Shown piece by piece: positions 6,938 through 22,907 of a stretch of 64,000 nt of DNA. This stretch comes from Candidatus Pacearchaeota archaeon (GTDB taxonomy: Archaea; Nanobdellota; Nanobdellia; Pacearchaeales; UBA284): positions 529,106 to 593,105 of the forward strand of contig JAVZYK010000001.1 in NCBI GenBank assembly GCA_038886195.1, read 5' to 3'. Position numbers and translations under genes: made by a program. Every line of letters begins with the position of its first letter. Position 1 is the first letter of the stretch. A model generated the notes under the pieces. It was given only the letters and a program-made list of their open reading frames with translations. It had not been told where the DNA came from and searched no databases.

Positions 6938-7792
6938 ATGCCAAAAAAAGTTCCTGTAGATGTTGTTTTGAAATTAACTAAGCAAGGTTATAATGATGCA
7001 GAGATTATAAAATATCTTAGAAGCGAAGGTTATAGTGCTACACAAATTAATGACGCTATAAATCAAGCGAAAATTAAAATCGAACTAGCAAAAACTGCCG
7101 GTATAGAGCCGGAAGAAACAATTGGAGTGGAAGAAAGTTATCCTGAAGAGTATGTAGAAGAAGAAATGCCTGAAGAAGAAATGCAACCTTCTATAATGGA
7201 AGAAGAATACGTATCTGAAGAAGCTCCTAGTGCCTATCCAGAATATGCGCCAGAATATTCAGAAACAGAAGGCGAATACGTATCAACTCCCGGCGGAGAA
7301 GTTCCTTCTGGCACAGTTCCAGAAGGAACCGAAGCTTATCCAGCTTATTATTATCAGCCAGCAAGTGCTGCTTCAGCTTCTACAGAAGCAGTTGAAGAAC
7401 TTGTTGAAGAAATTATTAATGAAAAGTGGGAAGAGTTTAAAACAAAGGTAGGAGATATTTCTGAATTTAAAAATTATATAGAAGCAAGATTTAAGAATAT
7501 TGAAGATAGAATGAAAAGATTGGAATTGTCATTTGATAAAGTTCAGATGAATGTTACAACACAGACACAACAATCGATAAGAGATGTTAAAACTTTAGAA
7601 TCAGAATTCGAAGCTTTACAACAAGTTTTTAGTAAGATAATGCAGCCATTAATGAACTCTATAAAAGAACTCAAAGATTTAGTAGAAGAAATAAAAGAAG
7701 TGAAAGAAAAGAAACCTGAAAAGATTAAAGCTAAGAAAGAAAAAATAAAAAGCACTATAGAAAAATTAGAAAAAATTAATTCTAAAAAATAA
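6938..7792 (+). CDS. Acidic coiled-coil protein with a small N-terminal helical domain, unknown function
   Basis: N-terminal domain 'VDVVLKLTKQGYNDAEIIKYLRSEGYSATQINDAI', an E/Y/P-rich acidic low-complexity linker, and a C-terminal coiled coil similar in character to the product of 6482..6877. Confidence 0.4.
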   Translation: MPKKVPVDVVLKLTKQGYNDAEIIKYLRSEGYSATQINDAINQAKIKIELAKTAGIEPEETIGVEESYPEEYVEEEMPEEEMQPSIMEEEYVSEEAPSAYPEYAPEYSETEGEYVSTPGGEVPSGTVPEGTEAYPAYYYQPASAASASTEAVEELVEEIINEKWEEFKTKVGDISEFKNYIEARFKNIEDRMKRLELSFDKVQMNVTTQTQQSIRDVKTLESEFEALQQVFSKIMQPLMNSIKELKDLVEEIKEVKEKKPEKIKAKKEKIKSTIEKLEKINSKK

Positions 7793-8962
7793 TTATTCTT
7801 CGCTCAACATTTTTTCTAAAAGTATTGTTCTATCCTTCGAAGTTACAGGTTCATTTAAAGCTTCTATTTTTTCTATAAACGAAGACATTCCATCACCTAC
7901 ACCAACTCTTCTTTTGTTGCACTCAAGAAGGCAGTCACACCATTTACAATGGAAACCATAAAAAGGAGTAAAATTGCCTTCTTTTATATCTCTATCCACT
8001 GTTCTTATTAGCTGATATAAATACTCATAATCTTTATCGCTCCTTTTTGTTTCAAAAGTATTTCCAGAACGAAGATGATAAAGTAGTAATCTACTTTCAT
8101 CAGGCAAGTTTAATGATTTTGATTTTTTCCACTCTCTATAAACTTTACTATATTGTGTAAATTGCGGATGATGATGTAACACAAATTCTATTTCAGGGCT
8201 AAAATCTGGAGAATCTTTTCCAGTTTTATAATCTACAATCTCTATATCACCTTCTGAATTTTTTTGAATTTTATCGAATTTTGCAACTAGTTTATAACCT
8301 TCAAATTTTTCAACAACTCTTTTTTCATGAAATAAAACATTGGCTTTTTTGTTTATATTTTCATCATAATATTTTGATAGAATTTTCATTGCTAATAGGC
8401 CGTAAAGTTTAGCTTCATTTTCAATTCTTAAACCAACTTCTGCGAAAGCGAGAGCTTGCTCAAGCGATATATTTATTCCATATTCTTTAAACTGTTTTGC
8501 TTGGAATTCTGCATTAAAATATTTTTTATCAAAAAAATTTGAATTAATGTTATAATAATTGTAATTATTCTGAGTTATTAATTTTATTCCTTTTTCAGCA
8601 AAAATTTTTGCTTGGCCATCTGTTATTTTAATTCCATATTTTTCGAACATAAATTTTTGTCTTATGGGATTGCTCCACGCTATTCTTATTTTTTGTTTAA
8701 ATTTTCCTTCCACACTGCCAAACCAATAAAACCAAGCCCAATTTAGAAAAGAACGTTTTGATTTGAAATTTTTTTTATGAAATTGGTCAAGAATATAATG
8801 AATTTGCTGTCCGAAAAATGCTGCAGGGGTTGCCGGAACTTTTATTCTTTCGATATATTTTATTTCATAAGCTAAAGGGCAACCTCTATAAGTAGTTAAT
8901 TTTGTTGCGCTTACTATACCAATTCCTTTAGTATAATCTCCCTTTATAATTATAGAAGGCAT
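7793..8962 (-). CDS. PD-(D/E)XK family nuclease with Cas4/RecB-like Fe-S cysteine cluster
   Basis: N-terminal Cys ('YRGCPLAYE'), a core 'EGDIEIVDYKTGK' (D...E.K nuclease motif) and C-terminal 'FHCKWCDCLLEC', as in Cas4/AddB-type nuclease domains. No CRISPR array or other cas genes nearby. Confidence 0.6.
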   Translation of the reverse strand: MPSIIIKGDYTKGIGIVSATKLTTYRGCPLAYEIKYIERIKVPATPAAFFGQQIHYILDQFHKKNFKSKRSFLNWAWFYWFGSVEGKFKQKIRIAWSNPIRQKFMFEKYGIKITDGQAKIFAEKGIKLITQNNYNYYNINSNFFDKKYFNAEFQAKQFKEYGINISLEQALAFAEVGLRIENEAKLYGLLAMKILSKYYDENINKKANVLFHEKRVVEKFEGYKLVAKFDKIQKNSEGDIEIVDYKTGKDSPDFSPEIEFVLHHHPQFTQYSKVYREWKKSKSLNLPDESRLLLYHLRSGNTFETKRSDKDYEYLYQLIRTVDRDIKEGNFTPFYGFHCKWCDCLLECNKRRVGVGDGMSSFIEKIEALNEPVTSKDRTILLEKMLSEE

Positions 8963-8964
8963 TT

Positions 8965-9936
8965 TTATTCTTCTCCATCTTCTATACCTCTAGGTGTAAT
9001 AAAGAAAATAGTTTCGGCTTCAGGCAAATTTGGCGAATCTATCATTTTGGCAATTCTAGAATCTTTTTTACCTTTTCTTAAATATATTCTATATGTTGAT
9101 CCATGAGCTACTATGTGACCTCCTATTGGCGTAGTTGGATCTCCGAACATAATTGCAGGATTTGCCATGACTTGATTTGTTATATAAACAGCAATATTGT
9201 ATGCTTGAGCGATTCTCATCAAATCGTGCATATGTTTATTTATTTTTTGTTGTCTGTCGGCCAGCATACCACGTCCAACAAATTCAGCTCGAAAATGAGC
9301 CATTAGCGAATCAACGATAATTAACTTTATTGGTTCTCCATTTTTTATTAAATCTTTAATTTTTTCGACAAGCAGTATTTGATGGTCAGCATTAAATGCT
9401 CTTGCTACAAAAATGTTTTTTAAAGCAGTTTCAGGATCAAGACCTTTAAATTGAGCGATTTGTTTTATTCTTTCAGGCCTAAAAGTTGATTCCGTATCTA
9501 TCCATGCTGCTTTGCCATCCGCTCCTCCTTGCTCTTTTGGTAATTGTACATTTACTGCAAGGCAATGAGCTAATTGCGTTTTGCCGCAACCAAATGCGCC
9601 AGCAGCTTCTGTTATTGCGCCAGCTTCAATACCACCTCCAAGCAATAAGTCAAGATTTTTACTTCCAGTTGTTATTTTAAAAATTTTTTCTCTTTTTTTT
9701 GAAAATTCATCAGCACTTTCAAATTCAAGATGCAACATCTTACGAGCTGCAGCTATCGCCTTTCTTGCAGCGGTTTCACTCAAATCTGTAACAGTACTTA
9801 AATCAGCAGGAGTCATTACAGCTATAGCCATTAAATCGCCATAACCAGCTTCTTCTAATTTAGCAGCAGTTGTAGGTCCTATTCCTGGCAAGTCAGTTAA
9901 TTTTAATTCAGCAGCATCTTTCTTTTCCTTAGCCAT
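8965..9936 (-). CDS. radA: DNA repair and recombination protein RadA
   Basis: N-terminal HhH '[20 protein letters not shown]', Walker A '[12 protein letters not shown]', and RecA-fold motifs '[15 protein letters not shown]' and 'AVYITNQV'. 323 aa. Confidence 0.95.
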
Positions 9937-9995
9937 TATAAATTAAGAGAGTTTAGTTTTATAAAGATTATTCTGGCGTGAAATATATTTAGAAT

Positions 9996-11009
9996 TTATT
10001 TAATATCGCTTAACTCTTTTATTAATTCGTCTGGTTCTAGTTCTTTAACAGAATCTATAATAAATTCATTTCTATCGAATAAGATGTTTTTGCGAGTTCT
10101 ACCAGTAAAAAGCCACTCGGTTCCTAAAAGTTCTGATTTTTTTTCTAAAAAAAATGAAGAGTCTTGCAATTTATCAAATTCAGTTTCTTCAATTTTTAGT
10201 AATTTATTTATATTTTCGCTAAATGCTAAAGACCTTATATTTTCTGTTCCATCATCTATGATTAAATTGAGCAGGGCTCTTTTGTTTGGAATAACCACGC
10301 CATGTCTTATGCATATGGCTTTATCGGCTTCGTAGCTTACTTTCATATTACATTCAGGACAAACTAAAAAGAAAGCTGGCTGAAATAACTGGACTATTGT
10401 GGCTCTAACAGAAGCTCTTTCATTTGTTTTTAATTCTGAAATTTTAGAAATTTTTAATTTTTCTTCATAATGAACTATTTTTTCTATTTTGGCATCACTT
10501 AAGGAAATTTCTGAATTTGAACTTAAATGGAGTTCTCTTGCTGTAGTGCCTCTAACATCAGCGTTTTTTATTTCTATTACAGAATCTTTGTTTATAGTTC
10601 CATTTTTTATTAATTCAATGTGCTTAGTGTCCCATAGTACAACTCTAATTGAAGAAGTGTCATCAGCAATAAGCATTGTAGCAATTTCTCCTTCATGTTC
10701 TCCTCTCCTGTATTTGCGAACAGGGTATATTTCAAGAACTTTTCCTACGACTTGGACTTTCTTCATGCCTATAAGCAGATCAATAATTTTGTATTTCTGT
10801 TTTTCAAAAGAAATTCCCAATTCTGCAGCTACAACTTGTATTGCGCCTTCATTGCTTATTAAACCGCTTAACTTGGCCTTTTTCGCTTCAACTTTTCTTA
10901 AAATTTCATCTTTAGTTAAACCACTAAGTTTTGCTACTTTTTCTACAAGCTGCTCAAAAGTTGCTTGAATCATTTTTCTAATTTTTTGTTTTTCAATAAA
11001 AATATTCAA
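9996..11009 (-). CDS. Replication protein A-like single-stranded DNA-binding protein (OB folds plus zinc ribbon)
   Basis: OB-fold pattern 'VQVVGKVLEIYPVRKYRRGEHEGEIATMLIADDTSSIRVVLWD', a second OB-like region, and C-terminal zinc ribbon 'CPECNMKV...CIRHG'. Confidence 0.65.
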   Translation of the reverse strand: MNIFIEKQKIRKMIQATFEQLVEKVAKLSGLTKDEILRKVEAKKAKLSGLISNEGAIQVVAAELGISFEKQKYKIIDLLIGMKKVQVVGKVLEIYPVRKYRRGEHEGEIATMLIADDTSSIRVVLWDTKHIELIKNGTINKDSVIEIKNADVRGTTARELHLSSNSEISLSDAKIEKIVHYEEKLKISKISELKTNERASVRATIVQLFQPAFFLVCPECNMKVSYEADKAICIRHGVVIPNKRALLNLIIDDGTENIRSLAFSENINKLLKIEETEFDKLQDSSFFLEKKSELLGTEWLFTGRTRKNILFDRNEFIIDSVKELEPDELIKELSDIK

Positions 11010-11067: not shown

Positions 11068-11871
11068 TTATTCTAAAATAAATTCTAATTTAATCGGCTC
11101 AAATTTTATGTTGTTATTTTCTATAAAGAAAAAAGCTCTTTTTGTTTTAAGATTAAAAAAGTAATAATTGTTTTGTTTTTCAACTTTAACATTCCAATTT
11201 TCAAAATTTAAATTTTTGAAACAATCTTCATTTTCATTGCATTTTGATTTTTCTTCCATGATTTTATCATATATTTTTAAAAAATCATTAAGATATATTC
11301 CTTGTTCTTCAAGTTTAGTATTTATTGTTTGTTCTTTCGAAAGAATTATATCATAGTTAACAAAAATTCCTTTCTTTTCTATTTCAATAGTTGCCGGTTC
11401 ATTTTTTGATATTATGATATTTTCTTGCTCATTGAAAATGTGAGTGTAATTTTGCCTTAATTTTTCATTAGGGTATGATTTTATTAGAAAATCAAAACTT
11501 TTGTTAAATTCCTCTAGGAATGCTTTTTTGATGTATTCTGTTTCTGGTTTACATTCTAGATTCCAAATTGGTAAATGCGTTTCTGGTTCTATTTTGCAAG
11601 CTGATTTTTTTTCTACAGCGCCATTTTTTGCTATAATATGGAATGCTTGCGACGCCGCAAGCTTTTTTGTTTCTTCTATATATAAAGAAAATCTGTCTTG
11701 CTCATTGTAAATGCTTGTTAAAATTGGAAGCAATTCAATTTCTGTGGCTACATTTTTATTTGTTGTAGAAAATGCAAACCAGGCAGTAACTATAAAAATT
11801 ATCGTTGCTAAAACCATTCCTGCCGCAAAAATTCCAGCTTTTCTATTTTTCATTTTATTCTTTAATTTCAA
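11068..11871 (-). CDS. Membrane-anchored extracellular protein; possible pilin-like N-terminus
   Basis: 'MKLKNKMKNRKAG|IFAAGMVLATIIFIVTAWFAF': basic segment, small residue, then a hydrophobic helix, resembling a class III signal. Confidence 0.35.
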   Translation of the reverse strand: MKLKNKMKNRKAGIFAAGMVLATIIFIVTAWFAFSTTNKNVATEIELLPILTSIYNEQDRFSLYIEETKKLAASQAFHIIAKNGAVEKKSACKIEPETHLPIWNLECKPETEYIKKAFLEEFNKSFDFLIKSYPNEKLRQNYTHIFNEQENIIISKNEPATIEIEKKGIFVNYDIILSKEQTINTKLEEQGIYLNDFLKIYDKIMEEKSKCNENEDCFKNLNFENWNVKVEKQNNYYFFNLKTKRAFFFIENNNIKFEPIKLEFILE

Positions 11872-12352
11872 GATTTGCTATTATAGTTTCATTTGAAGGA
11901 ATATAAAAAAAAGAACCTTTGTATTTTAAGTAAGGTACGAAAATTATTGAAGGGCCGGCCAATGTTGGTTTAAATGTTAGTTTAGTTAAATCTTCTAGTT
12001 TCAATATATCGAATTTATAGTCATAAATATTAAAAGCTGAACTTTCTTGTTCTAAAATGGCTTTATAAGTAGAATTTATTTTTGAAAGTATTATTAGTTC
12101 TGCGATGGTTAAATTTTGTTCTTCGTTATTAAATATTATTGTTACTGGTTTTTGAAGCCAGGATTGTAACGACAAGTGTTCTTGATTATGAATTGATTGT
12201 TCTTCTGAAGATTTTTTAATTTCAGTTACAGCTCCTCCCCAAAACACTTTTGATAATACGAAAAATATTATTAAAAGAACAATTATTATGGCGGCTCCTA
12301 CAACATCTTGGAGAGCTTCTCCTATTTGCCCTTTCTTATTCGTTCTTTTCAT
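11855..12352 (-). CDS. Type IV pilin-like protein (class III signal peptide)
   Basis: 'MKRTNKKG|QIGEALQDVVGAAIIIVLLIIFFVL' closely resembles archaeal prepilin/archaellin signals (KKGQIG...). Confidence 0.55.
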   Translation of the reverse strand: MKRTNKKGQIGEALQDVVGAAIIIVLLIIFFVLSKVFWGGAVTEIKKSSEEQSIHNQEHLSLQSWLQKPVTIIFNNEEQNLTIAELIILSKINSTYKAILEQESSAFNIYDYKFDILKLEDLTKLTFKPTLAGPSIIFVPYLKYKGSFFYIPSNETIIANLEIKE

Positions 12353-12354
12353 TT

Positions 12355-12825
12355 TTATAGATTCTTTTCAGTTTTTCTTATTGCTATAAATATTTTTGCT
12401 GTTGAAAGTTTTTGTTGGTTTAAAACCAAATATTTTGTTTCTGAGCAACTAGGATATGTTTTTATGTTAACTTTTTTTTCTTTTGCTTCACATAGGGTGG
12501 CTAAAAAACTTTTTCCAGTTTCTATAGAATTATCATCAAGAGTTAATTTGATATATAATTCATTTTCATTTATTGGAATGCAGTCAGTTAAATTCTTAAT
12601 TTCTATGTTATTATTGATAATGCCTTTAGGAGCTATACATTCTATAATTTTTCTAGAAATTGCTGCTGTTTCTAGAGGTCTAACATCTAATTGTCTAGAA
12701 TAATGAGATATCACAATAGCTACTACTCCGCCTATTACCAATACAAGAAGAATAAATTTCCAAAGCCAACTAATTCCATGGCCTAGCTGCGCTTTCTTTT
12801 CTTTAAATATAAATTTTATTTTCAT
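12355..12825 (-). CDS. Membrane-anchored protein, possibly pilin-like
   Basis: 'KEKKAQLGHGISWLWKFILLVLVIGGVVAIV': basic stretch followed by a hydrophobic helix. Confidence 0.35.
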   Translation of the reverse strand: MKIKFIFKEKKAQLGHGISWLWKFILLVLVIGGVVAIVISHYSRQLDVRPLETAAISRKIIECIAPKGIINNNIEIKNLTDCIPINENELYIKLTLDDNSIETGKSFLATLCEAKEKKVNIKTYPSCSETKYLVLNQQKLSTAKIFIAIRKTEKNL

Positions 12826-13172
12826 TTTATTTCAATTACAGTTATATTGCCTTTTGATGTAAATATGACATTATCTTGCAAATAACAAGGATAAATATAA
12901 CCAGGATCGAAAGAACCTTCTCTAATTATGATGTCTGTTCTTTTTTTTTCTATTGAAATTTTTTTATCGTGTTCTATTATAATGTTTGTTCCAGCTCTTC
13001 CTTGCGCTTCCGTTATTGCAATACACAAATCTTTAGCCAGAATCTGTTTTTTTAATGCCTTGCCAGAAGCTTGACTGTTTATCCAAAAAACTACCATTAT
13101 TAGAATCATTATAATGAAAAACAAGTTAAAGAAAAATTGCCACCCTAATTCAAAACCTCTTTTATTAAACAT
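12822..13172 (-). CDS. Type IV pilin-like protein (class III signal peptide)
   Basis: 'MFNKRG|FELGWQFFFNLFFIIMILIMVV'; 116 aa. Confidence 0.5.
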   Translation of the reverse strand: MFNKRGFELGWQFFFNLFFIIMILIMVVFWINSQASGKALKKQILAKDLCIAITEAQGRAGTNIIIEHDKKISIEKKRTDIIIREGSFDPGYIYPCYLQDNVIFTSKGNITVIEIK

Positions 13173-13273
13173 TTTAATAAATTATAATAATTTTTATAAA
13201 GAAAAAGGATTAATAAATTTAGTGATTATGATAATATGGACGAGAATCTATTGAATAATTTTTAAATTAAAAA

Positions 13274-14224
13274 ATGTTAGACTATCGTATTGAAGTTGAA
13301 AATACAAAAAGCACGATAAACGAAATAAATAAAGAAGACTTTGAATTAACGTTCAAAATTAGTTTACCAAAACAAAACTATTTATCAAATATAAAAAAAT
13401 TTTTTGAGACGAGAAAAGAAAATAACCCTTTTTTGAAAAAAAGTTGCTCAGAGGAAATTAAAAAATATGAGAAATGTGTTGAAGAAAAATATTTTGAAGA
13501 AGTAAAAGATGTATTGTTGCAAAGATTAATTTTATCAGATTTTTATATTGAATTGAAAGAAGAATTTGATGAAGAAAAGAATGAAAAAAACCTTCTTGTC
13601 AATATAAAGAGAGAAAATTTTGATAGCTTCTTTAAGTTAAGTTTTTTAATGCCAAGAATAGAGACTAAAAAATCTATTTTTGGTTCTAGTATAAAAAAAG
13701 TTTCTTTACCAGATTTAATTTATTATTATACTCTTTCAGGAACTGGAGATCCTACGGCTGTTGATAAAATAAAAGACGAATATGCGAGAGAAGTTCCGAT
13801 TGCAAAAGAATTTAAAAATTATTTTATTAATGGAGAATGGATTAAAATTAAGGATGTTCAATTAACTGAAGAAAATTTCAAAATAGAAGTTGTTGGAAAA
13901 ATAATGTTTGAAATTTATTATTCGGAACAACTCAAACAAAAATCGCCAAATTTGTCTGATTTAAATGCTTTATTATTTGAAGAAAAAAAGCAGAGCTTGC
14001 TAACAAAACTTGCTTTTGATAATAATTTGTCGCATAAAGTTGAAATAAGAAAAAATGAAATGGAAACGATCGTTAAAAGTAGAAATAAGGATTTTGAAGC
14101 AAAAATTATTTTAGCTCCTAATGCCGATTTTCTACCATTGTTTTTAAGTTTTTATTATTCTATCCATGGTAATGGTAAAAATTTTCATACTTTTTTAAAA
14201 GAGTATTGGCCATCGACAGAATAA
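13274..14224 (+). CDS. Hypothetical protein
   Basis: 316 aa, no TM segment, no recognised motif. Lies inside the pilin-like cluster. Confidence 0.4.
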   Translation: MLDYRIEVENTKSTINEINKEDFELTFKISLPKQNYLSNIKKFFETRKENNPFLKKSCSEEIKKYEKCVEEKYFEEVKDVLLQRLILSDFYIELKEEFDEEKNEKNLLVNIKRENFDSFFKLSFLMPRIETKKSIFGSSIKKVSLPDLIYYYTLSGTGDPTAVDKIKDEYAREVPIAKEFKNYFINGEWIKIKDVQLTEENFKIEVVGKIMFEIYYSEQLKQKSPNLSDLNALLFEEKKQSLLTKLAFDNNLSHKVEIRKNEMETIVKSRNKDFEAKIILAPNADFLPLFLSFYYSIHGNGKNFHTFLKEYWPSTE

Positions 14225-15027
14225 AAATGCCTCTAAAGAGAACATTTTATAAATACGGAAGTAATAAAATAAATAAAATACAATTAAAGCAAGAATCAAA
14301 AAATCACAAAATAAAAAATTTTTTATTAACTGCTTTTGCTTTTTGTACTATTGGAGTTGTTGCTTATTTGGCGTGGCCGAAAACTAAAGCTAGCGAAGGC
14401 GCTTTTGAAAAAAACAAAATTAATAAAGAAAAGCTTGAACAACAATATGTTTATAAAAAATCGAAAAGAGCTCCTCTAGAAATAAGAATAGATGAAATTA
14501 CATTTAATAATAGTTTACAAAGAAGATATTTAACGACTAGAACTTTAGAAGATGCGGTTATTAAACTAGAAATAGAAGCAACATTTCCTTCTGATGCATA
14601 TGTGTATAGCGATTTTAAAAGTATAAGTGAGCCAAGTTCGAGTGAAATTGAATATATGAGAAATTATTTTATTAATCGTTTTACGCAAAAATTTTCTGAG
14701 GAAGTTCCTTTTTTTATGATTGATTTTTATGTTAATGGCAATAAAGTTCATGAAGAAATAAAATTAAATTTTCCGAACATAGCGGAAAGATCGATATCTT
14801 CTTATCCTAAAGAAATTAAAATAAGAAATAAAAATTTTATTTTAACATGCAATGTAGGAGGAACAATAAATAGAAATATTTATGGAACTGTAGAAACAAA
14901 AATTAGAGAAAGACATTATAATGGCCTAGGAACTTATACTACTTTTTATTATTATGATGTTAAGGGCTACATATTTATAACAAAAAGTTGGCTTAAAGAC
15001 GTGTATATTAGAAAAGAACGTGATTAG
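14206..15027 (+). CDS. Hypothetical membrane-anchored protein
   Basis: Single TM 'FLLTAFAFCTIGVVAYLAW' after a basic N-terminus. Confidence 0.4.
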   Translation: MAIDRIKMPLKRTFYKYGSNKINKIQLKQESKNHKIKNFLLTAFAFCTIGVVAYLAWPKTKASEGAFEKNKINKEKLEQQYVYKKSKRAPLEIRIDEITFNNSLQRRYLTTRTLEDAVIKLEIEATFPSDAYVYSDFKSISEPSSSEIEYMRNYFINRFTQKFSEEVPFFMIDFYVNGNKVHEEIKLNFPNIAERSISSYPKEIKIRNKNFILTCNVGGTINRNIYGTVETKIRERHYNGLGTYTTFYYYDVKGYIFITKSWLKDVYIRKERD

Positions 15028-15039
15028 CAGCCAAATGCA

Positions 15040-15942
15040 TTAAGGAATGCTTTCTATGTTTTGACAATTGGCAACTACGTCTTGAGCAGTTAGTGGAGTT
15101 AAAATTATAGCATTACAACCTTTGCGTTCACCTTCACAATGTACTGCAGCAGCATGTCCTGAAGTTAAAAAAGTAATTACATGTCCTGCCGCTTCTGCGG
15201 TCGCCATAATCCATCCAATAACTGGAATTAATTTTACTGCTGATTTTACTCCTATTTTAGTTAAACCTTTAGCTAAAAGACGAGGAACAAAAAAAGCACT
15301 TGTTCCACCCAATCCTATATAATTTTTAATTTCTTCTCCTAAATCTTCTCCCTTTATAGACATAAAGATTATTGCATAATCTTGATTTGTATCTAATTTT
15401 TCTATTTTAATTTCTGTTGGAAGTTCTGCTTTTTCTTCTTGACTAAAATATTCTAAATAAGTTAAATTTTTTGATGGAATTTTTGTTCGTTCAAGAAAAC
15501 TTAACAAATCGATTTGTTTTCTTTTAGCCTTTTCATCAAATCTAATTATTGAGCATATAATACAATTTGCTTTTGCAGTTCCCTTTCCTGGAACCCCCCA
15601 CTCACGCCAACCGCTTTCCGAGAAAAACTGCATTTTGCCTTCACCCAGCATCCACCAGCAATCATACATAGCATTTGCTATTTCTCTTTTAATGAAATCT
15701 TCATTAGTGGAACTAATTGTTATTTCTTGAGTTTTACAGTTTAAAGGAATTGTTTCTGGAAGCATTCCTTCTCCTCTTAAAATTGCATTATTTCTTAAAA
15801 TTACAGAATTTCTACAAGCTTCTTTATCAACAGTTTCTTTATAAGGTAGTGCTTTTAGGAAAAAGAAAATTATTGCAGCAATTAGGAGAACTATGATTAT
15901 GCCTATTAACATTGATTGAACTGTTACGCCTCTTTTATTCAT
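15040..15942 (-). CDS. Pilin-like secreted protein, Cys-containing
   Basis: 'MNKRG|VTVQSMLIGIIIVLLIAAIIFFFL' class III-like signal. The 300-aa body has 8 Cys. Confidence 0.45.
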   Translation of the reverse strand: MNKRGVTVQSMLIGIIIVLLIAAIIFFFLKALPYKETVDKEACRNSVILRNNAILRGEGMLPETIPLNCKTQEITISSTNEDFIKREIANAMYDCWWMLGEGKMQFFSESGWREWGVPGKGTAKANCIICSIIRFDEKAKRKQIDLLSFLERTKIPSKNLTYLEYFSQEEKAELPTEIKIEKLDTNQDYAIIFMSIKGEDLGEEIKNYIGLGGTSAFFVPRLLAKGLTKIGVKSAVKLIPVIGWIMATAEAAGHVITFLTSGHAAAVHCEGERKGCNAIILTPLTAQDVVANCQNIESIP

Positions 15943-15999
15943 AAATTTTATAAATAAAAAAGGATTAATAAATTTAATGATAATTTAACTGAATAAAAA

Positions 16000-16668
16000 A
16001 TGGGGAAAATTGGTTGTTTTAGTTTATTGACTTTAATAGCTGGTGGCATTTTGGCTGCAAGTTATTGGATAGGAATTTTACAAGATTTAAAATATGAAAT
16101 TATTTTGCCTTCTAGAGGACGTTTAGCTAAGCGCAAAATAGAAAGCAAACTTAATGCAGACTGTTTCGAAAGATATTGGGAATATGGAAAAACTTATTGT
16201 GAAGGAGGCAAAGTCAGCGGAAACTATTATTTTATTTATTTTAAAAAAAATCCTGATTTTTTAGAACCTTTTTTTGGAAAATTTAATATCATTGATATCA
16301 AATTTCCTAAAGCCAATACTCTTGATGAGGCATTTATGTATGTTTCAGATATGTTGTCTAACAAGATTTTGGGTATTGAAAGAAGAATTTCAGAAGAGAA
16401 ATTATCCGTTTTAGAAAAAGAGATTAGAAACTCTGGAATTACTCCAGAAATCGAAACAGAATTGTTTAAAATTTTTAATCCATTTTTGGGAGAAGAAAAA
16501 ACAAGAAGAATTATTGATATCGCCACTGATGAAAATTTATCTGCAGAAGAAGCGACAAAGAGATTTATAGATGAAGTTCCAACTAATTTAAGTTCAGAAG
16601 AAGAAAAATTTGTCAAAGACGTTGTGAAAAAAATATTAGAACATCCTAAAGTAAAAGAAAATTATTAA
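16000..16668 (+). CDS. Hypothetical membrane-anchored protein
   Basis: N-terminal TM 'FSLLTLIAGGILAASYWIGIL'; 222 aa. Confidence 0.4.
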   Translation: MGKIGCFSLLTLIAGGILAASYWIGILQDLKYEIILPSRGRLAKRKIESKLNADCFERYWEYGKTYCEGGKVSGNYYFIYFKKNPDFLEPFFGKFNIIDIKFPKANTLDEAFMYVSDMLSNKILGIERRISEEKLSVLEKEIRNSGITPEIETELFKIFNPFLGEEKTRRIIDIATDENLSAEEATKRFIDEVPTNLSSEEEKFVKDVVKKILEHPKVKENY

Positions 16669-17003
16669 ATTCTATAACGATATTTTAGTTTGCTCTTCAT
16701 AATGGGATGCGAGACTAATGGAATTCCTGAGAAGTCAAAAGCGCTATTGGAATAGGCAATAGGCTATTTAAGCTATACTGAGGCTTTATGATAAAAAAAA
16801 GCAATCTTTATAAGCGGCATTGTTACAGGTGCTGAAGGAAGATTATTGAGTAATACAAATTTACAGATACTCTCGTTGTTAGAGAAGAAGATGGAAAATT
16901 ATATTATTCCAAAACGTTTAAGTAAAAATAAAATTGCAGATCCGATTAAAACGAAAAGTAAAATTATTATTATCAGTTTAACAAGAGTTTGAGTTTCCAT
17001 TTT

Positions 17004-18116
17004 CTATGAAATAGCGGCCTTCACTTTTTGAAGATAATCTAAACCTTTGAAAGATTTGCAATTTTCAACTTCTAAAGGAACACAATACTTTTCAACCATA
17101 GAGGGACCTGTATTGTAAGCCATCACTCCTAACTCCCAATCTTTAAATTTATCTATCATTGAAATCAAATGTCTTGTGCCGACATCAATATTCTTTGCTT
17201 CATCAAAACGTTCATCCAAAGCAATAAGTTCTTCTTTTGTTTTTGTATTTTTTAAATTTTTCAATTCTGTAACATAATCAGTTTTTAAATAGTTTAAAAT
17301 TTCGTCACTCCATCTTGCTTCTAGAGGGGTGTTTTTTATCTTATCATTTGGATCATAAATTTTTAATCCAAAATCTAAAGCGACTTGAGGCATTAATTGC
17401 ATCAATCCAACTTCACCAGTTGTGCCAATAGCATTCCAAGAACCTTGAGATTCAATTGTAATGATTGCTTTAATTAATTTTTCAAATTCTTGTTCATTGG
17501 CTATGTAGTTTTTATCTTTAATTTGAGGATAGTATTTTTTTACTATTTCGGTTATAATAGAGTTATAATTTTTTTCAATTATTTGATTAGTCTGTTTTAA
17601 TTGAAGTTGAATTTCTGCTTTTTCTTCTTCTGTTAAAGATATTGGAATGGTTGGTTTTATTTTGCTTACATTGTAGTATTCTTTCATATTGGTTAACCAT
17701 ATCTCGCTAATTTGAATTTGTATTATAGCAAGCTCATTATCTTTTTTTAAAGGCAATTTTATTGTTTGGCAAATTTTACATTCTTTTTTTTCACAAATGC
17801 AAAGAATGTTTTGCTGAAAATATTTAGAAGGTTTGATATAGTCTTTGTTTTTGTTGTGTTGAGTATCGAAAGCAACTATATGCCAACCTATTGGAGCATA
17901 AAGAAAATAATTTTTAGATTCAGCTTCTGTTAAGTTATTTAAAATTTGAGTTAGTCTATCTAAAGTGCCTTTTGCTTGCATTTCTTTTTGTTTGCCAAAA
18001 TAAGTTGCGAAAAGCCTTTGAGCAGCAAAAATTAAAATGATTATTATCATTATAGCAAGAATTATTTCTAAAATTTGTTTTAAACCCCATTCGTCACCTT
18101 TTTTGTTAATATTCAT
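17004..18116 (-). CDS. Lytic transglycosylase (SLT/GH23 domain) with pilin-like class III signal peptide
   Basis: N-terminus 'MNINKKG|DEWGLKQILEIILAIMIIIILIF'. The C-terminal domain 'IESQGSWNAIGTTGEVGLMQLMPQVA ... VMAYNTGPSMV' matches the SLT catalytic-region motifs (E-S ... GLMQ ... AYN.G). Confidence 0.7.
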   Translation of the reverse strand: MNINKKGDEWGLKQILEIILAIMIIIILIFAAQRLFATYFGKQKEMQAKGTLDRLTQILNNLTEAESKNYFLYAPIGWHIVAFDTQHNKNKDYIKPSKYFQQNILCICEKKECKICQTIKLPLKKDNELAIIQIQISEIWLTNMKEYYNVSKIKPTIPISLTEEEKAEIQLQLKQTNQIIEKNYNSIITEIVKKYYPQIKDKNYIANEQEFEKLIKAIITIESQGSWNAIGTTGEVGLMQLMPQVALDFGLKIYDPNDKIKNTPLEARWSDEILNYLKTDYVTELKNLKNTKTKEELIALDERFDEAKNIDVGTRHLISMIDKFKDWELGVMAYNTGPSMVEKYCVPLEVENCKSFKGLDYLQKVKAAIS

Positions 18117-18152
18117 AAATAGAGTAAAGAAATATAATATTTAAAATTTTGT

Positions 18153-18332
18153 TTAAGGTTTAATTTGGGTTTCATTCCATAAGCCAAATGTAATTTTTAT
18201 TCTAGTCATTAAATTTGCAATAACTTCTTTCATTGTTCCAGAAAAAATTAATAGAATTACAATTAGAGCCACTAAAGCTAAAATTATAATTATGATTGTA
18301 TTGATAGAGAGTTCTGCGGCCTTTTTGTTCAT
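18153..18332 (-). CDS. Small type IV pilin-like protein
   Basis: From the internal Met: 'MNKKA|AELSINTIIIIILALVALIVILLIF'. Paralogous to the N-terminus of the 18338..18721 product. The track ORF extends to 18371 but would then overlap the upstream gene. Confidence 0.45.
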   Translation of the reverse strand: MNKKAAELSINTIIIIILALVALIVILLIFSGTMKEVIANLMTRIKITFGLWNETQIKP

Positions 18333-18337
18333 CTTTT

Positions 18338-18721
18338 TTATTCTGAAGGAGGATAACCAAGCTCTTCGCACCTTTCTCTCGTAGCTATCGTTATTTCCTT
18401 ATTTGTGGCAGGGTCGATGTATTTTAGTTTCGCTTCTATTGGCTTTTCGAAACAGTAAAAGTAATCTGTAGTTTTGTTTACTGTATTGTAAAGAGGTTGT
18501 TTTACTTGACAAAAAGTTTCTATTGTTGCTTGGGAACAATAGTCTTTTACAATTCTAATTCTATCACCACCATAAACTTGATAAGCTGTTTTTATGCTTC
18601 CAAAAAGATTTTGTAAGCCTCCAGTAAACCACAATACTAAAACTACGAGCACTACTATGGCTAAAATTATTATAATCACTGTTGTAACATTTATTTCTAC
18701 GGCTTTTTTATTTATTTTCAT
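18338..18721 (-). CDS. Type IV pilin-like protein (class III signal peptide)
   Basis: 'MKINKKA|VEINVTTVIIIILAIVVLVVLVLWF'; 127 aa. Confidence 0.5.
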   Translation of the reverse strand: MKINKKAVEINVTTVIIIILAIVVLVVLVLWFTGGLQNLFGSIKTAYQVYGGDRIRIVKDYCSQATIETFCQVKQPLYNTVNKTTDYFYCFEKPIEAKLKYIDPATNKEITIATRERCEELGYPPSE

Positions 18722-18787
18722 TTTTCCTCTTTTATCTTTTTTATTTAATTTTATAAAGCAAGATTGTTTTTAAAACTTTCTAACTAT

Positions 18788-19357
18788 TTAACTGCCGCAC
18801 ATTCTAATGTCAACCTCGGTTGTCGGTTTATTTGAAATTAAAAAGTAGAGGGCATCTTCTTTTTTGTAAACTAAATTGCTAACAACATAATATTTATTTT
18901 TTTCAACTCCTGTTTGCAAAAATAATGGAGGTTCGGTTTTCCAGTCTATAGTTTTTGTCGGTACTAAATGTAGTGGCTTGTTCGTTTCTATTATTTGTGC
19001 TTTTGTTAATAAATTATCTATTGTAGCGTTTTTGTGAATTTTTTTATCATAAGTTAATTCTAAAATAGTTGATTTTCCTACAGTTCTAATTACTAGTTTA
19101 TAATTTTTTGCAAAAGTGGCAGGCCAAGAAGGAAAAACTTCGCAGACGCAATCGTTTTCTTTTAATGAATTACATCTTTCTATATTTTCTACCATTATGT
19201 CAAAATTACTTTTACTTGCTTCTTCTGCTTCTTTTGGTAAACTTGCAATTAAGCCAATACCTTTTAGAAGCTCTTTTCCTGGGCCAAAGAATAAAATATA
19301 AATTACGACAAGAATTATAACTAGTCCTAAAATCCATTTTATGATTGTCCAAATCAT
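18788..19357 (-). CDS. Membrane-anchored extracellular protein
   Basis: N-terminal TM 'IIKWILGLVIILVVIYILFF'; 189 aa. Confidence 0.4.
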   Translation of the reverse strand: MIWTIIKWILGLVIILVVIYILFFGPGKELLKGIGLIASLPKEAEEASKSNFDIMVENIERCNSLKENDCVCEVFPSWPATFAKNYKLVIRTVGKSTILELTYDKKIHKNATIDNLLTKAQIIETNKPLHLVPTKTIDWKTEPPLFLQTGVEKNKYYVVSNLVYKKEDALYFLISNKPTTEVDIRMCGS

Positions 19358-19566
19358 TTTAAGCTATCTTCCAAATCTTATAAAGTCTTTTATCCATTCA
19401 ATTAAATTAGAGCCCTGTTTTTTTAACAAAATTGCTAGAGCAAATAAAAAGGCAAGAACTATTATGGCAATTATCCAAGCAACAACTTCCCATTCAATGC
19501 CTCTTTTCATGCAAATATGTTTCATAAAACAACAATGTTTTTTAACTTTAAAAATTTAATTAGATC

Positions 19567-20283
19567 ATGAAATGGAAAGAATGGCTTTTAGGGCTAGGAT
19601 TATTAATTCCTATAACTAATGTTGCGCAAGAAGCTGAAGAATATCCGGAATATTGGCAAGAAGAAATTGAAAGGAAAACTAATGCTGGAACGAAAATAGA
19701 TTGGAATTATTGGGAGCCCTGGGAATTTTATGTTGAAGGAGGCTCTTGGAGAGTTCTTGATGATGTTGCAATTCAGATTAAAAAAATATATCTTGATTCT
19801 CTAATAGATCCTTTACCTCCTGATGATCCACCAGGAAAAGAAATGAGAAGATATTATCTTGTTATAGATGCTTCTTTTAGAGCTTTAAATAATAACAAGA
19901 CAATTGATCCGGCTTCGGATTTTTTATTAAAAGATGAAAAGAGAGAAATATGTAGTTCTGATTATGAAGGTCGTGATGTAAATGGTTTTCCAAAATTAGG
20001 AAATAGAGTTTCAATGTACGAAAAACTAAATCCAGGAAAACTTAAAAGAATTTATCCACACAGTTCTTATTCTGATAAAATAACTGTTGGAGCTGCCAGA
20101 GAATTTGCTGTTTCAAGGAAAATCTGTTTTGCTATTGGTGAAAATGAGATTTATGGAAATGGAAGAAGAATTAGTTCCTATCTAAATGAAAATCTTTGGC
20201 TTTGTTATGGTAGAGGCTCTATTCCTTTAACAAATATTGAAAACATTTTGAGAGAAGGTTATTACGAAGAACACGAAGAATAA
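19567..20283 (+). CDS. Secreted hypothetical protein
   Basis: Signal peptide 'MKWKEWLLGLGLLIPITNVAQEA'; 238 aa. Confidence 0.4.
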   Translation: MKWKEWLLGLGLLIPITNVAQEAEEYPEYWQEEIERKTNAGTKIDWNYWEPWEFYVEGGSWRVLDDVAIQIKKIYLDSLIDPLPPDDPPGKEMRRYYLVIDASFRALNNNKTIDPASDFLLKDEKREICSSDYEGRDVNGFPKLGNRVSMYEKLNPGKLKRIYPHSSYSDKITVGAAREFAVSRKICFAIGENEIYGNGRRISSYLNENLWLCYGRGSIPLTNIENILREGYYEEHEE

Positions 20284-20334: not shown

Positions 20335-22500
20335 CTAAATAATTCCCGAAATAGCAACTGCCGCAAGAGCGCCGAGGGCTATTATTGCCATAAAAGCAGC
20401 TATAACATACAAAGTTATGCCAGTCATAAGCATTTTACTTATTTGATATTTTTCACTTAATCTATCTTCTCCCGATTCTATTGTTACAAGAGTCTGTGTT
20501 AAAATAAATATTATTTCAATAAGATAAATACCAACAATTATTTGAAGCCAATAAGGAGGAATCATTTTTACTACATTAAACATAGAGGTTATCATTCCAA
20601 CATTGCCAAAACCAGCTATAGTTTGCTCAGCACTTAATTCGCCACTCTCGATCATTAATTGTAAAGTTCCAAGAATGATTGTAATCATACTTGCCAATCC
20701 AACAACTATTGCTGCAAGCAAAGGAGCAAGAAAAGTCATGTTACTTTTCATACCGCTTGTTATTTCTGCCAACAGATCTTTAAGCCTTTCATTTACTTTA
20801 TGAATATTTTTAACATAATCGCTTATTGCCATTAGGGCTCTTGCCGCAACTTGCAAACCTTTTTTTACTGATTCTATCAAAATTTGCATACTGGTTCTTA
20901 GTAGCTCAGAAGGATAATAGTTTATAGCTCCTCTAGATTTATTGAATATTGCTTCTTCTACACTCATGCCTGCTTGTTGAATATTTATGTTAACTGTGTT
21001 AAAAAAGCCCGCGGCCGGAGTGCCTTTAAGGCTATAGGCAACTCTTCCGAATGCCATTTCTGCAGGAATGCCGTCTGCAAGCCTATTGCCTAGTTGAAAA
21101 ATAGCAGAAGAGAATTCCTGTTCTAGTGTTTTTGTTTGATTTCTAACAATTATGAGTTTTTGTGTTTTTAATTTATACGCTATAGCAAAGAAAAGTGCAA
21201 TTGAAAGAGGAATAAAGATGCTTAAAAGCAACGCTATAGGGCCAAAAGGTCCTACAGTAGCATCAGTCTCAGGATCTACTTTAAAGTCAAATATTGTTTG
21301 ATTTCCAAAAAAACTTAAGCCTAGTTGTTCGAAACTGTAGTCTGATTGTATGCCTAAAGCATCAGCCATGCCATAATGTAAAAGTAATGGCAGAATTCCA
21401 AGAATAAAGAAAGGCAAAGCAATAATGGCTGCCGTGAAATAGTGGCTTTTATCTTGATAATTTCTGTATTCTGGATTTCTTTCTAAAAGTTCTGTTTCAC
21501 CGAAACCGCCGGGACGTTTACTTAAAATTTGATTTGTCATATAAAAAACAAAAAAAGGAACTATTATGTTAAATAGAAGCGCAACATGATACCATTTAAT
21601 TGCTCCTTGTAATAGTGTAGAAGCAAGAGGCAATAGTGCCAAACCAAGAGTTGGTAAAACTATTCCTAACATGTAGATATTTGTTATTGGTGATTTTACA
21701 TCATGAGTGTAATGCATCATTTTTTCATAAACGCCGTCTAGAATTACTTCAAGCGCTTTTTCAAGTATTGCAATTCTTCTATGTTCATTAGGTTCATAAA
21801 GAGAAGATTCAATCATATGAATAGATTCAACAAATTCCATAGAATAATCGCGCCAATTTTCAAGATATGCATCTAGAGCATCTTTTATTGTAGGAAATTT
21901 TGCTGTCTCAACATCCCAAAAAATTTTTTTTAAATCAAGCGACAAAGGCGGTTGTAAATGTTGAGAAGCGAATCTTATTGCTCTTTCTAAATTGCTAGTG
22001 TGTCTCATATAAATGACTATATAAAGAATACAAGAAACCATTTGCGATGATGCTTTTAAACGCCATTTTTGTGCAATTCTCGTAGGCAGTGTGTTAAGAT
22101 AATAAAACAAGAAGAAAGATACAAATAGTAATAACATAAAAAGAAGAAATGGAAAACTTTCAGTAAAGAAAAAAATCGCAACCGATGTGAGAAGAGATAT
22201 TAAAATAGAAACTATAAGAGCAAAGACAGCTAATCCGGCAGCTTCGCTCGGCTCTATTTCAAGATGAGCAGTTTTGAGATCTTTGGATATTCTTTCTTCA
22301 TCTTTAGATGAAAGTTTCAACTTTAAAATTTTACCAAAATTTTTACAAGCTCGCTCATAAGAGCTAAGTGGCGCAAGAGTTTCTGTGCGAAATTTTCTAT
22401 ATTCTACAGAATAATCGCTTGGAGCTTCTTCTCGAAGTTCTTTTTCTATTTTAGTTTCAAATTTTTTCAAAATATCTTTTAGTTCTTCTTTACTAACCAT
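20335..22500 (-). CDS. Polytopic membrane protein, FlaJ/TadC/PilC-like pilus-assembly platform protein (inferred)
   Basis: 721 aa with a cytoplasmic N-terminal helical domain followed by clustered TM helices. The call rests on that topology plus a size typical of archaeal FlaJ-like proteins and the neighbouring pilin and ATPase genes, not on a confirmed GspF domain. Confidence 0.5.
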   Translation of the reverse strand: MVSKEELKDILKKFETKIEKELREEAPSDYSVEYRKFRTETLAPLSSYERACKNFGKILKLKLSSKDEERISKDLKTAHLEIEPSEAAGLAVFALIVSILISLLTSVAIFFFTESFPFLLFMLLLFVSFFLFYYLNTLPTRIAQKWRLKASSQMVSCILYIVIYMRHTSNLERAIRFASQHLQPPLSLDLKKIFWDVETAKFPTIKDALDAYLENWRDYSMEFVESIHMIESSLYEPNEHRRIAILEKALEVILDGVYEKMMHYTHDVKSPITNIYMLGIVLPTLGLALLPLASTLLQGAIKWYHVALLFNIIVPFFVFYMTNQILSKRPGGFGETELLERNPEYRNYQDKSHYFTAAIIALPFFILGILPLLLHYGMADALGIQSDYSFEQLGLSFFGNQTIFDFKVDPETDATVGPFGPIALLLSIFIPLSIALFFAIAYKLKTQKLIIVRNQTKTLEQEFSSAIFQLGNRLADGIPAEMAFGRVAYSLKGTPAAGFFNTVNINIQQAGMSVEEAIFNKSRGAINYYPSELLRTSMQILIESVKKGLQVAARALMAISDYVKNIHKVNERLKDLLAEITSGMKSNMTFLAPLLAAIVVGLASMITIILGTLQLMIESGELSAEQTIAGFGNVGMITSMFNVVKMIPPYWLQIIVGIYLIEIIFILTQTLVTIESGEDRLSEKYQISKMLMTGITLYVIAAFMAIIALGALAAVAISGII

Positions 22501-22622: not shown

Positions 22623-22907
22623 ATGGCATTAAAAATTTTAAGAATAAGCGAAGTTATTGGAATGAAAGTTTTTACTGATGGTGGCGACTATCTCGGTACA
22701 GTAGAAGAAGCAAATATAATTGAAAATAAAATTGATGGATGGAGAATCAGAATAGCAAAAGATAGTAGTTTAATTGCTTTGTTAGGAGGAGCCAGAGGTT
22801 TAATCATTCCTCATCAATATGTAAAAGCCTTTGGCGAAGTGATTATAATAAGCAAAGCAGCTGTTCCAGTAACAGAAGAAAAAGTAGAAGAGGCAATTAC
22901 AGAGTAA
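22623..22907 (+). CDS. PRC-barrel domain protein
   Basis: 'VIGMKVFTDGGDYLGTVEEANIIENKIDGWRI' is a typical PRC-barrel pattern; 94 aa. Confidence 0.55.
   Translation: MALKILRISEVIGMKVFTDGGDYLGTVEEANIIENKIDGWRIRIAKDSSLIALLGGARGLIIPHQYVKAFGEVIIISKAAVPVTEEKVEEAITE

Follow-up and report, generated by a model that had tools for sequence, protein, structure and literature searches.

The stretch of DNA analysed here, which we call the window, is 64,000 nucleotides long and comes from a Candidatus Pacearchaeota archaeon (GenBank assembly GCA_038886195.1, contig JAVZYK010000001.1, positions 529,106 to 593,105), with a G+C content of about 30% and a series of archaeal informational genes, namely those of FtsZ, Spt5, RadA, RPA, SRP54, FtsY, GINS, L44e, S3Ae, TFB, a tRNA-splicing endonuclease, S15 and aIF2α. 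Between 11 and 19.5 kb it holds a dense cluster of minus-strand genes whose products begin with prepilin-like leaders, and this cluster, together with the predicted type IV filament machinery encoded around it, is the subject of this work. The original prediction, made from the letters of this DNA, had pointed out eight such genes, and all eight open reading frames (ORFs) are indeed present and agree with the public PGAP calls in their gene boundaries, the only adjustments being to two start codons, 18332 (the 59-residue gene) and 11853 (the 261-residue gene). We also found a ninth member that had not been listed, family M, and an equally unlisted, leaderless mini-ORF that is homologous to a 43-residue ORF with an NKKA leader in related loci; small M-like ORFs between I and G occur in several loci. 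The neighbouring genes of families D, C, B and A overlap or abut each other, in an operon structure. The public name of eight of the cluster proteins is "hypothetical protein", and that of the 370-residue one, family I, is "lytic transglycosylase domain-containing protein".

On the same strand as the cluster, the window also encodes a secretion ATPase, a candidate platform protein and an A24 prepilin peptidase. The ATPase has the Walker A motif GTRSSGKT and matches the archaellum ATPase FlaI (NF058587, E = 1.9e-37) and TadA (E = 5.4e-32), both below the NCBIfam cut-offs. The peptidase shows the two aspartate motifs (ITD... and GGGD), besides a weak match to Arc_PepC_II; the lack of a functional prepilin peptidase had been named among the findings that would speak against the original prediction, and the window does encode a peptidase of this family. 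A 246-residue membrane protein beside the ATPase gene (3224-3964) was also considered as the peptidase and rejected, given that it neither matches A24 nor shows a GxGD motif and that its linkage to the system is inconsistent. The 721-residue polytopic protein that flanks the cluster has more than 3,800 homologues, some of them named "Flp pilus assembly protein TadB" by the Joint Genome Institute, and a PDB sequence search with its profile returned noise only. It is likely a TadC/FlaJ-type platform protein, as suggested by its AlphaFold2 (AF2) model (predicted local distance difference test, pLDDT, of 80), in which a domain of about 115 residues matches the cytoplasmic domains of GspF, EpsF, OutF and PilC with Foldseek probabilities of 0.97-1.00; the template modelling (TM) scores were 0.72-0.74 for OutF (root-mean-square deviation of 2.9 Å over 114 columns), 0.65-0.73 for EpsF and 0.67 for PilC. 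With the ATPase, the platform candidate, the A24 peptidase and the pilin-like subunits, the minimum of components for a type IV filament system of archaea is assembled, and we regard the cluster as a predicted and previously unannotated type IV filament locus of DPANN archaea.

The conservation of this locus was followed in a comparative set built with the profile of the 721-residue protein, which gave 80 loci with one genome per species, to which three loci were added by exact look-up. The window proteins then served as queries in an iterative hidden Markov model (HMM) search that covered every ORF of 82 loci, and the closest relative of the window, L083, was compared separately and later; all compared loci belong to metagenome-assembled genomes of Pacearchaeota, Woesearchaeota or "Nanoarchaeota". 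The original prediction had called for such a comparison, and the families do recur in a fixed order in at least 60 of the 82 loci: ATPase, TadC-like protein, M, a variable large pilin-like protein, K/J, I, G, D, C, B, A and sometimes a further K, with A as the last gene of the conserved I-G-D-C-B-A block. Five of the large variable pilin-like proteins taken from other loci have no Pfam domain. Family M was found in 70 of the 82 loci and adjoins the TadC-like gene, or lies one gene off, in most related loci, and family L is restricted to the clade of the window (14 loci). In 35 of 55 loci the ATPase and TadC-like genes are no more than 600 nucleotides apart, and the A24 peptidase gene comes directly after the cluster, as its terminal gene, in 41 of the 82, usually followed by RPA. 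This linkage of ATPase, TadC-like and A24 genes supports the earlier view that so many pilin-like subunits in one place mark a type IV pilus-type locus. In the clade of the window, where the peptidase gene is displaced by about 32 kb and the ATPase gene by about 14 kb from the platform gene, both genes have moved away from the cluster, which is a derived state.

Two further genes accompany the ATPase, at 6482-6877(+) and 6938-7792(+); their products, of 131 and 284 residues, are predicted to be cytoplasmic and are coiled-coil-like by eye, the second with an acidic low-complexity centre. Their homologues stand beside the ATPase gene in about 50 of the 82 loci (median distances of 136 and 522 nucleotides), and both may represent accessory parts of the machine that have so far escaped recognition.

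Table 1. Genes and modules of the predicted filament system in the window (a slash marks the predicted leader cleavage site)
Feature	Position	Strand	Length (residues; for the parts of I, residue span)	N-terminus	Remarks
Secretion ATPase, FlaI/TadA family	4049-6340	-	763		PF00437, E = 5e-12, above gathering threshold
Family A, pilin-like	11068-11853	-	261	MKNRKA/GIFAAGMVLATIIFIV	orthologues at the same position in 60 of 82 loci
Family B, pilin-like	11855-12352	-	165	MKRTNKKG/QIGEALQDVVGAAIIIVLLIIFFVL	17-nucleotide overlap with A
Family C, pilin-like	12355-12825	-	156	...KEKKA/QLGHGISWLWKFILLVLVIGGVVAIVI	orthologue leaders KKA/QAGH, KRG/QLGE
Family D, pilin-like	12822-13172	-	116	MFNKRG/FELGWQFFFNLFFIIMILIMVVF	4-nucleotide overlap with C
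Family G, pilin-like	15040-15942	-	300	MNKRG/VTVQSMLIGIIIVLLIAAIIFFF	8 cysteines
Mini-ORF	16899-17000	-	33	METQTLVKLIIIILLFVLIGSAILFLLKRFGII	leaderless
Family I, pilin-like module plus SLT	17004-18116	-	370	MNINKKG/DEWGLKQILEIILAIMIIIILIF
I, SLT (GH23 lytic transglycosylase) cargo	17004-17561	-			C-terminal domain
I, linker	17562-17636	-	161-185		mostly helical (AF2)
I, carrier module	17637-18116	-	1-160	MNINKKG/DEW	conserved CxCx4CxxC
Family J, mini-pilin-like	18153-18332	-	59	MNKKA/AELSINTIIIIILALVALIVILLIF (AELSINT)
Family K, small pilin-like	18338-18721	-	127	MKINKKA/VEINVTTVIIIILAIVVLVVLVLWF (VEINVTT)	cysteine-rich
Family L	18788-19357	-	189	MIWTIIKW...	N-terminal anchor without class III motif
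Family M, mini-pilin-like	19364-19525	-	48-53	MKRG/IEWEVVAWIIAIIVLAF	conserved C-terminal RFGR
Candidate TadC/FlaJ-type platform protein	20335-22500	-	721		polytopic; flanks the cluster
A24 class III signal (prepilin) peptidase	54874-55758	-	294		PF01478, E = 3.5e-14, above gathering threshold

The common leader of the cluster members reads M-x-N-K-[KR]-[GA] and is followed by about 20 hydrophobic residues. When the window was scanned from every possible start in six frames with a hydrophobicity cut-off, this pattern was found in eight real genes at 11.0-19.5 kb, whereas the other 55 kb gave a single further case that was convincing, 35172-37040; the ninth leader gene, that of family C, lay below the cut-off. 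We then aligned each family on the last [KR][GAS] ahead of the hydrophobic segment, with positions -3 and -4 not imposed, and in the orthologues of all nine families, drawn from more than 60 genomes, Lys stands at -3 in 76-93% and Asn at -4 in 42-74% of the cases, with K/R at -2 and G/A at -1 also conserved across these nine otherwise unrelated families and the initial Met 5-7 residues upstream of the site. Ahead of an N-terminal hydrophobic segment, NK[KR][GA] was present in 280 of 583 members of the nine families and in 4 of 321 other ORFs of at least 150 residues from the same loci, the corresponding counts for the looser [KR][KR][GA] being 499 of 583 and 21 of 321; the strict motif is thus enriched 40-fold over the other N-terminally hydrophobic ORFs of the 82 loci, and its four bearers among those ORFs resemble further pilin-like proteins. 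An acidic residue occurs within the first five mature positions in 55-86% of the members of eight families, which is analogous to the conserved Glu of bacterial pilins. The pattern of conservation indicates that the leader would be a shared recognition site, more than a positive-inside anchor, and we infer that it is cleaved by the A24 peptidase.

Behind these similar N-termini the bodies differ. The regions after the hydrophobic helix of the seven larger families (K, I, G, D, C, B and A) were compared by hhalign, which gave a probability of at most 1.4% in all 21 pairs, as expected from the earlier claim that the body domains are unrelated to each other. The 116-residue protein of family D matches ComGD (E = 0.026), and the profile of family K gave weak matches against the PDB (E = 0.16-1.2), with archaeal filament subunits as the best of them and with four of thirteen being subunits of type IV filaments, namely three archaeal "flagellins" of the archaellin type and a geopilin, all aligned from their own leaders; in the alignment with 8fk7 the K-G/L-E site is in register. 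Subunit I, the only one that was modelled, gave an AF2 model of residues 1-185 with 98 homologues and a mean pLDDT of 94.5, in which a single helix of 54 residues (8-61) starts at the first mature residue and is followed by eight β-strands (67-151) and then by a linker helix (163-183). As modelled, this module has the general architecture of a pilin, and a pilin-like mode of action is suggested by its leader, by this predicted architecture and by the operon in which it is encoded.

The proteins also diverge unevenly. Between the window and L083, the identity is 90% for the platform protein, 84% for D, 80% for B, 76% for I, 53% for J and 38% for K. When K is set against its counterpart in that relative (L083:14067-14441), the first 30 residues or so and the cysteines are kept and the rest has diverged, with five or six conserved cysteines in the alignment. 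This suggests a strong diversifying pressure on the head domain of K, and its fast divergence would fit an abundant exposed subunit, making K the candidate major subunit of the filament.

Subunit I also carries the one recognisable enzyme of the cluster. The SLT domain that had been noted in the original prediction is matched by PF01464 with E = 7.8e-19 (gathering score of 21.3 bits), and its catalytic motifs, ES at residue 221, GLMQ at 237 and AYNTG at 333, are intact. Its nearest solved sequence is a phage tape-measure SLT, with which ES and GLMQLMP align, and its best NCBIfam match is "flagellar assembly lytic transglycosylase" (E = 4.8e-07). Family I ranges in length from about 145 to 400 residues in the 82 loci and the window, and of its 65 proteins scanned there five carry SLT, two Glucosaminidase, one Amidase_2 and one 3D. 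In L006 (14371-15402), L013 (13872-14903) and L011 (15012-16202), the orthologues of I have Glucosaminidase (PF01832) or 3D (PF06725) in place of SLT. Long orthologues of I in L057, L070, L063 and other loci have C-terminal domains without a Pfam match, which may be wall hydrolases not yet recognised.

The pilin module of I alone was searched by HMMER against 1.84 billion cluster representatives, with 361 relatives found, and the census was made on the best 150 of them (representatives of clusters at 50% identity). In all 150 the match lies at the N-terminus, 149 have an N-terminal hydrophobic helix and 133 a [KR][GAS] site; 69 are longer than 260 residues, with C-terminal regions that fall into 29 unrelated clusters, and the homologues of 115-230 residues carry no cargo. 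The Pfam census of these best 150 gave SLT in 16, Glucosaminidase in 8, VanY/Peptidase_M15 in 6, Amidase_2 in 4, 3D in 4 and Phage_lysozyme2 in 1, and no other credible cargo family was found among them, the four further Pfam matches being single, weak and below threshold. Subunit I thus behaves as a modular pilin, with a linker and with a cargo that is absent or exchanged in its homologues. Every recognisable cargo cleaves peptidoglycan, through at least five unrelated folds at the same site of the same carrier and operon. We take this as our strongest argument that the carrier position would serve wall cutting, and the repeated recruitment suggests, as evidence of an evolutionary kind, a role in cutting bacterial peptidoglycan. 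Wall-cleaving cargo that is exchanged on a modular subunit joins two known things, the modular pilins and the archaeal peptidoglycan hydrolases, in a new form; and the architecture of I, together with its swapped hydrolases, lends support to what had been proposed for the locus, a multi-component fibre with functional tip or minor subunits.

We consider it probable that this region encodes the subunits of a type IV filament system of archaea that is conserved in Pacearchaeota, Woesearchaeota and GTDB "Nanoarchaeota" and has a modular wall-degrading minor pilin. In the mechanism that we propose, nine or ten small precursors (M, K, J, I, the mini-ORF product, G, D, C, B and A) would be inserted into the membrane with a leader of 5-7 residues ending in N-K-[KR]-[GA], which the A24 peptidase would cut at the cytoplasmic face. 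The FlaI-type ATPase and the TadC-like platform would then pull the mature subunits from the membrane by their N-terminal helices and stack them into a filament, with K, perhaps together with J or M, as the likely bulk subunit and with the six order-conserved and mutually unrelated subunits I-G-D-C-B-A as minor subunits, probably in an initiation or tip complex. Subunit I would present its wall-cutting enzyme on the filament to the bacterial cells that the archaeon contacts. From the evidence given above we infer the formation of a filament, the identity of its major subunit, the tip location and the bacterial target. As for the latter, archaea of this group are not known to possess murein or to make peptidoglycan, and therefore the target of the hydrolase would be foreign, that is, bacterial.

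Several observations weigh against this interpretation. In the curated-model scans of the cluster proteins (Pfam and NCBIfam, reporting level E ≤ 0.1), no pilin model was found for any of the nine, PF04021, PF07790 and the NCBIfam pilin models included, the ComGD hit of D being the only one of note. The Foldseek search with the I module returned no solved pilin, with a best probability of 0.18, and its membership of a known pilin family is therefore not established. The platform assignment consists of a one-domain fold match with a global E above 1 plus the gene neighbourhood; Pfam and NCBIfam gave no T2SSF sequence match for the 721-residue protein, 26 members of its family included, and no internal repeat was detected in it, with an alignment of low diversity. 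Glu stands at +2 or Gly at +1 in six of the nine leaders, either of which the FlaFind pattern would presumably reject. In the window the ATPase and the peptidase genes lie outside the cluster, and the plus-strand genes interleaved with it are variable inserts outside the conserved system. A recognisable hydrolase occurs in only about one quarter of the family I representatives, and wall cutting is therefore a lineage-specific add-on and not the core function. The organisms are, of course, uncultivated, with no filament, cleavage product or host known. As to the Foldseek search, it also returned low-probability galectin and spike β-sandwich matches of the I module, which we treated as meaningless.

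Compared with the archaeal type IV filaments already described (Epd of Methanococcus, Aap and Ups of Sulfolobales, and the DPANN loci of Makarova et al. 2016/2019), the system shares the FlaI-type ATPase, a polytopic protein as platform candidate, the A24 peptidase and several pilin-like proteins with a short basic leader ahead of a hydrophobic helix. It also shares the rapid divergence of its pilins with the DPANN type IV pilus loci, which have been described in general terms together with their unrecognisable "dark-matter" pilins (PMC6393860). It differs in that its platform is unrecognised by the T2SSF/FlaJ sequence models, in that its nine families match neither Class_IIIsignal/DUF361 nor Pilin_N, in its N-K-[KR]-[GA] leader, often with Glu at +2, which is specific to this lineage, and in its six order-conserved minor-type subunits, one of them bearing an enzyme. 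With the Tad/Flp pili it has in common subunits of about 50-60 residues (here M and J), a TadA-like ATPase and a TadB/TadC-like platform candidate, but it has no Flp G/XXXXEY motif, is archaeal and includes many large extra subunits.

The closest concept to subunit I is that of the bacterial modular pilins, such as PilB and PilC of Streptococcus sanguinis, which likewise have a module that is exchangeable in evolution and a predicted tip location (PMC8179133). The modules known from these bacteria serve mainly in adhesion (vWA, lectin), and those that can be recognised here are all peptidoglycan hydrolases; moreover, the host here is archaeal, the target polymer would therefore be foreign and there is no sequence relation to the IPR012902 module. 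Large extracellular SLT proteins of Pacearchaeota and Woesearchaeota, with a proposed bacterial target, are already on record (PMC8204110, PMC9723730), and peptidoglycan hydrolases, some archaeal ones being bactericidal, are prominent in Nanoarchaeota according to a survey that took in Sec and Tat signals only (PMC12352652). The enzyme families (GH23 SLT, glucosaminidase, amidase and M23) and the inference of a bacterial wall are the same as here, but the published archaeal hydrolases are large and secreted proteins of the Sec/Tat type, and a pilin leader, a carrier module or a site in a pilus operon is not described for them in the papers covered. The literature that we searched, which is incomplete, yielded no account of an archaeal pilus operon in which a pilin bears a peptidoglycan hydrolase.

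The same machinery could also process the class III precursors into a bindosome-like or pseudopilus-like assembly, in which enzymes and binding proteins would be displayed at the surface by a short structure close to the cell instead of an extended pilus; this we regard as unlikely. The ATPase matches the BasE model of the Sulfolobus bindosome (Bas) with E = 3.3e-18, several of the subunits are large (261-370 residues) and no filament has been seen to date; as in the bindosome, a non-structural cargo is placed at the surface on a pilin-type N-terminus by type IV machinery. Class III signal peptides are known on archaeal non-pilin cargo, and a 2026 preprint that classifies the archaeal type IV filament systems reports such leaders on substrate-binding proteins and leaves hydrolases unmentioned (bioRxiv 10.64898/2026.04.22.720090). 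Here, however, the cargo is hydrolytic instead of solute-binding, its gene has a fixed site in the pilin operon and the cluster includes neither a substrate-binding protein nor a linked ABC uptake system: Pfam found no substrate-binding domain in any cluster protein, and the only ABC (ATP-binding cassette) genes nearby are those of a MacB/FtsX-type exporter at 26957-28910. The tiny subunits M, J and K (48-127 residues) also resemble the building blocks of a filament, and the divergence of K set against the conservation of the platform fits an exposed and abundant filament subunit. Sequence data alone do not separate a short assembly of this kind from a pilus.

More doubtful still is a filament for the uptake or exchange of nucleic acids, Com- or Ups-like, in which the hydrolase would help to reach the DNA or the cytoplasm of a neighbour, although such a role would be compatible with the pilus interpretation and does not exclude it. 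In the window, the genes of RPA, RadA and a PD-(D/E)XK nuclease (7793-11009, minus strand) come next after the pilin block and run in its direction, spaced by 2-59 nucleotides. In 36 of 54 informative loci RPA keeps the direction of the cluster and lies within about 4 kb of its end, also where the whole block is inverted with respect to the platform gene, and a link of these three genes to DNA processing by the system is possible. The Ups pili of Sulfolobales are likewise linked to DNA-repair genes, and a life on scavenged nucleotides has been suggested for Pacearchaeota (PMC8204110). On the other hand, the window showed no DNA channel resembling ComEA/ComEC or Ced, 2-4 kb separate the cluster from RPA in 22 of those 36 loci, often with the A24 gene in the gap, and synteny in tiny and slowly rearranging genomes may be historical and not functional.

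We find it very improbable that the leaders are ordinary uncleaved signal anchors under the positive-inside rule, so that the cluster would be a set of unrelated type II membrane proteins with one tethered SLT. Such anchors would account for the missing pilin HMM matches and for the missing structural match to solved pilins, but they leave unexplained why nine unrelated families, across more than 60 genomes, share an invariant small residue at -1, Asn at -4 and Lys at -3, always 5-7 residues behind the start. Nor do they account for the 40-fold enrichment of the motif over the other N-terminally anchored ORFs, or for the presence of the A24, ATPase and platform genes in the same operon of relatives.

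Close to negligible, finally, is a self-directed remodelling in which the hydrolase would open the cell's own wall for assembly, as do VirB1, FlgJ and SltF: bacterial envelope-spanning machines often have a dedicated lytic transglycosylase or glucosaminidase, and the flagellar-assembly NCBIfam match of the SLT domain points the same way, but this group is not known to make peptidoglycan, about three quarters of family I have no hydrolase, which is unexpected for an essential assembly factor, and among the cargo there are amidases as well as domains of D,D- or L,D-peptidase type, as is typical of lysins. What the bacterial VirB1, FlgJ, SltF and EtgA do share with the system described here is a small wall hydrolase whose gene lies in the operon of a filament or secretion machine that spans the envelope; they cut the wall of their own producer and are not pilins, whereas the enzyme here is fused to a subunit.

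Returning to the pilus with a modular wall-degrading minor pilin, its wall-cutting cargo suggests that these archaea use the machine to attack or to attach to bacteria. One can go further and imagine a cross-domain "drill", in which the minor pilin would put the interchangeable hydrolase (transglycosylase, glucosaminidase, amidase or peptidase) at the tip of the filament and the hydrolase would locally open the wall of a bacterial host or prey on contact; we hold this version only tentatively, as a possibility that falls short of our main conclusion. If it were true, bacteria would be identified as the partners of Pacearchaeota and Woesearchaeota, to which a large part of the uncultivated archaeal diversity belongs, and an enzyme-tipped wall-breaching pilus would be a new functional class. 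That bacteria are the partners of these uncultivated archaea is in any case a testable hypothesis, with specific proteins named. For annotation, proteins so far public as hypothetical come together as one coherent and widely conserved predicted machine, and the N-K-[KR]-[GA] leader together with the order M-K-I-G-D-C-B-A-(K)-A24 provides a signature for thousands of DPANN genomes. About two thirds of the archaeal peptidoglycan hydrolases in a published survey have no recognised Sec or Tat signal, and some archaeal wall hydrolases, as we found here, carry a pilin-type leader, a predicted export route, within a pilus operon.

Concerning the genes inserted in the cluster, the original prediction had described interleaved membrane-anchored proteins on both strands, and this stands for the plus-strand gene at 16000-16668, whose product is anchored, but not for that at 13274-14224, which has no hydrophobic segment. 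The product of 14206-15027(+) has a weak hydrophobic segment, and that of 19567-20283(+) has an N-terminus like a Sec signal peptide by eye and no transmembrane-like segment in the scan. The genes at 13274-14224(+) and 14206-15027(+), of 316 and 273 residues, form an overlapping pair between G and D; they were considered as parts of the system and rejected, since neither has a homologue in the 82 loci. In L083 an unrelated gene of 299 residues occupies their slot, which looks like a hot spot for variable cargo within the operon. Homologues of 16000-16668 and 19567-20283 are kept in the nearest relatives only, L083 included.

Elsewhere in the window, a second predicted wall-degrading enzyme is encoded at 37084-44448(+) by an ORF of 2454 residues with a Sec-type signal peptide, MKRIVLIFFVVLFSIVLIRAQ, and a Peptidase_M23 domain of the lysostaphin type at residues 1886-1987. 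Directly upstream of it, the 622-residue product of 35172-37040(+) starts with the class III-like MPLQKKA/QVSLFIIIAIVIVAVALLIFF, has no Pfam domain and has a homologue in one of the 82 loci; it may be a substrate of the A24 peptidase outside the cluster. About 1.5-2.5 kb from the A24 gene, two neighbouring genes (57240-58181 and 58293-59210, both on the plus strand) encode secreted proteins with ...FVSGQ[EQ]GC as the end of the N-terminus in both, much like the processing site of a lipobox, with a weak CARDB match in one of the two. An ORF that runs off the end of the window (59772-64000, plus strand, more than 1400 residues) has an N-terminal anchor, NosD/right-handed β-helix repeats and a Cys-rich C-terminal part, and it coincides with a higher G+C content in the final 2 kb. 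Beyond the platform gene, three tandem and similar polytopic membrane proteins of 160-179 residues without a family (22948-23430, 23500-24039 and 24087-24569, plus strand) are preceded by a PRC-barrel protein at 22623-22907 and are syntenic with the locus in 51 of the 82 loci. Lastly, an 88-nucleotide tRNA lies at 32228-32315(+) (Rfam, 63.9 bits), for which ARAGORN gave an undefined two-base anticodon and which probably contains an intron; the gene of the tRNA-splicing endonuclease is located at 49163-49762.

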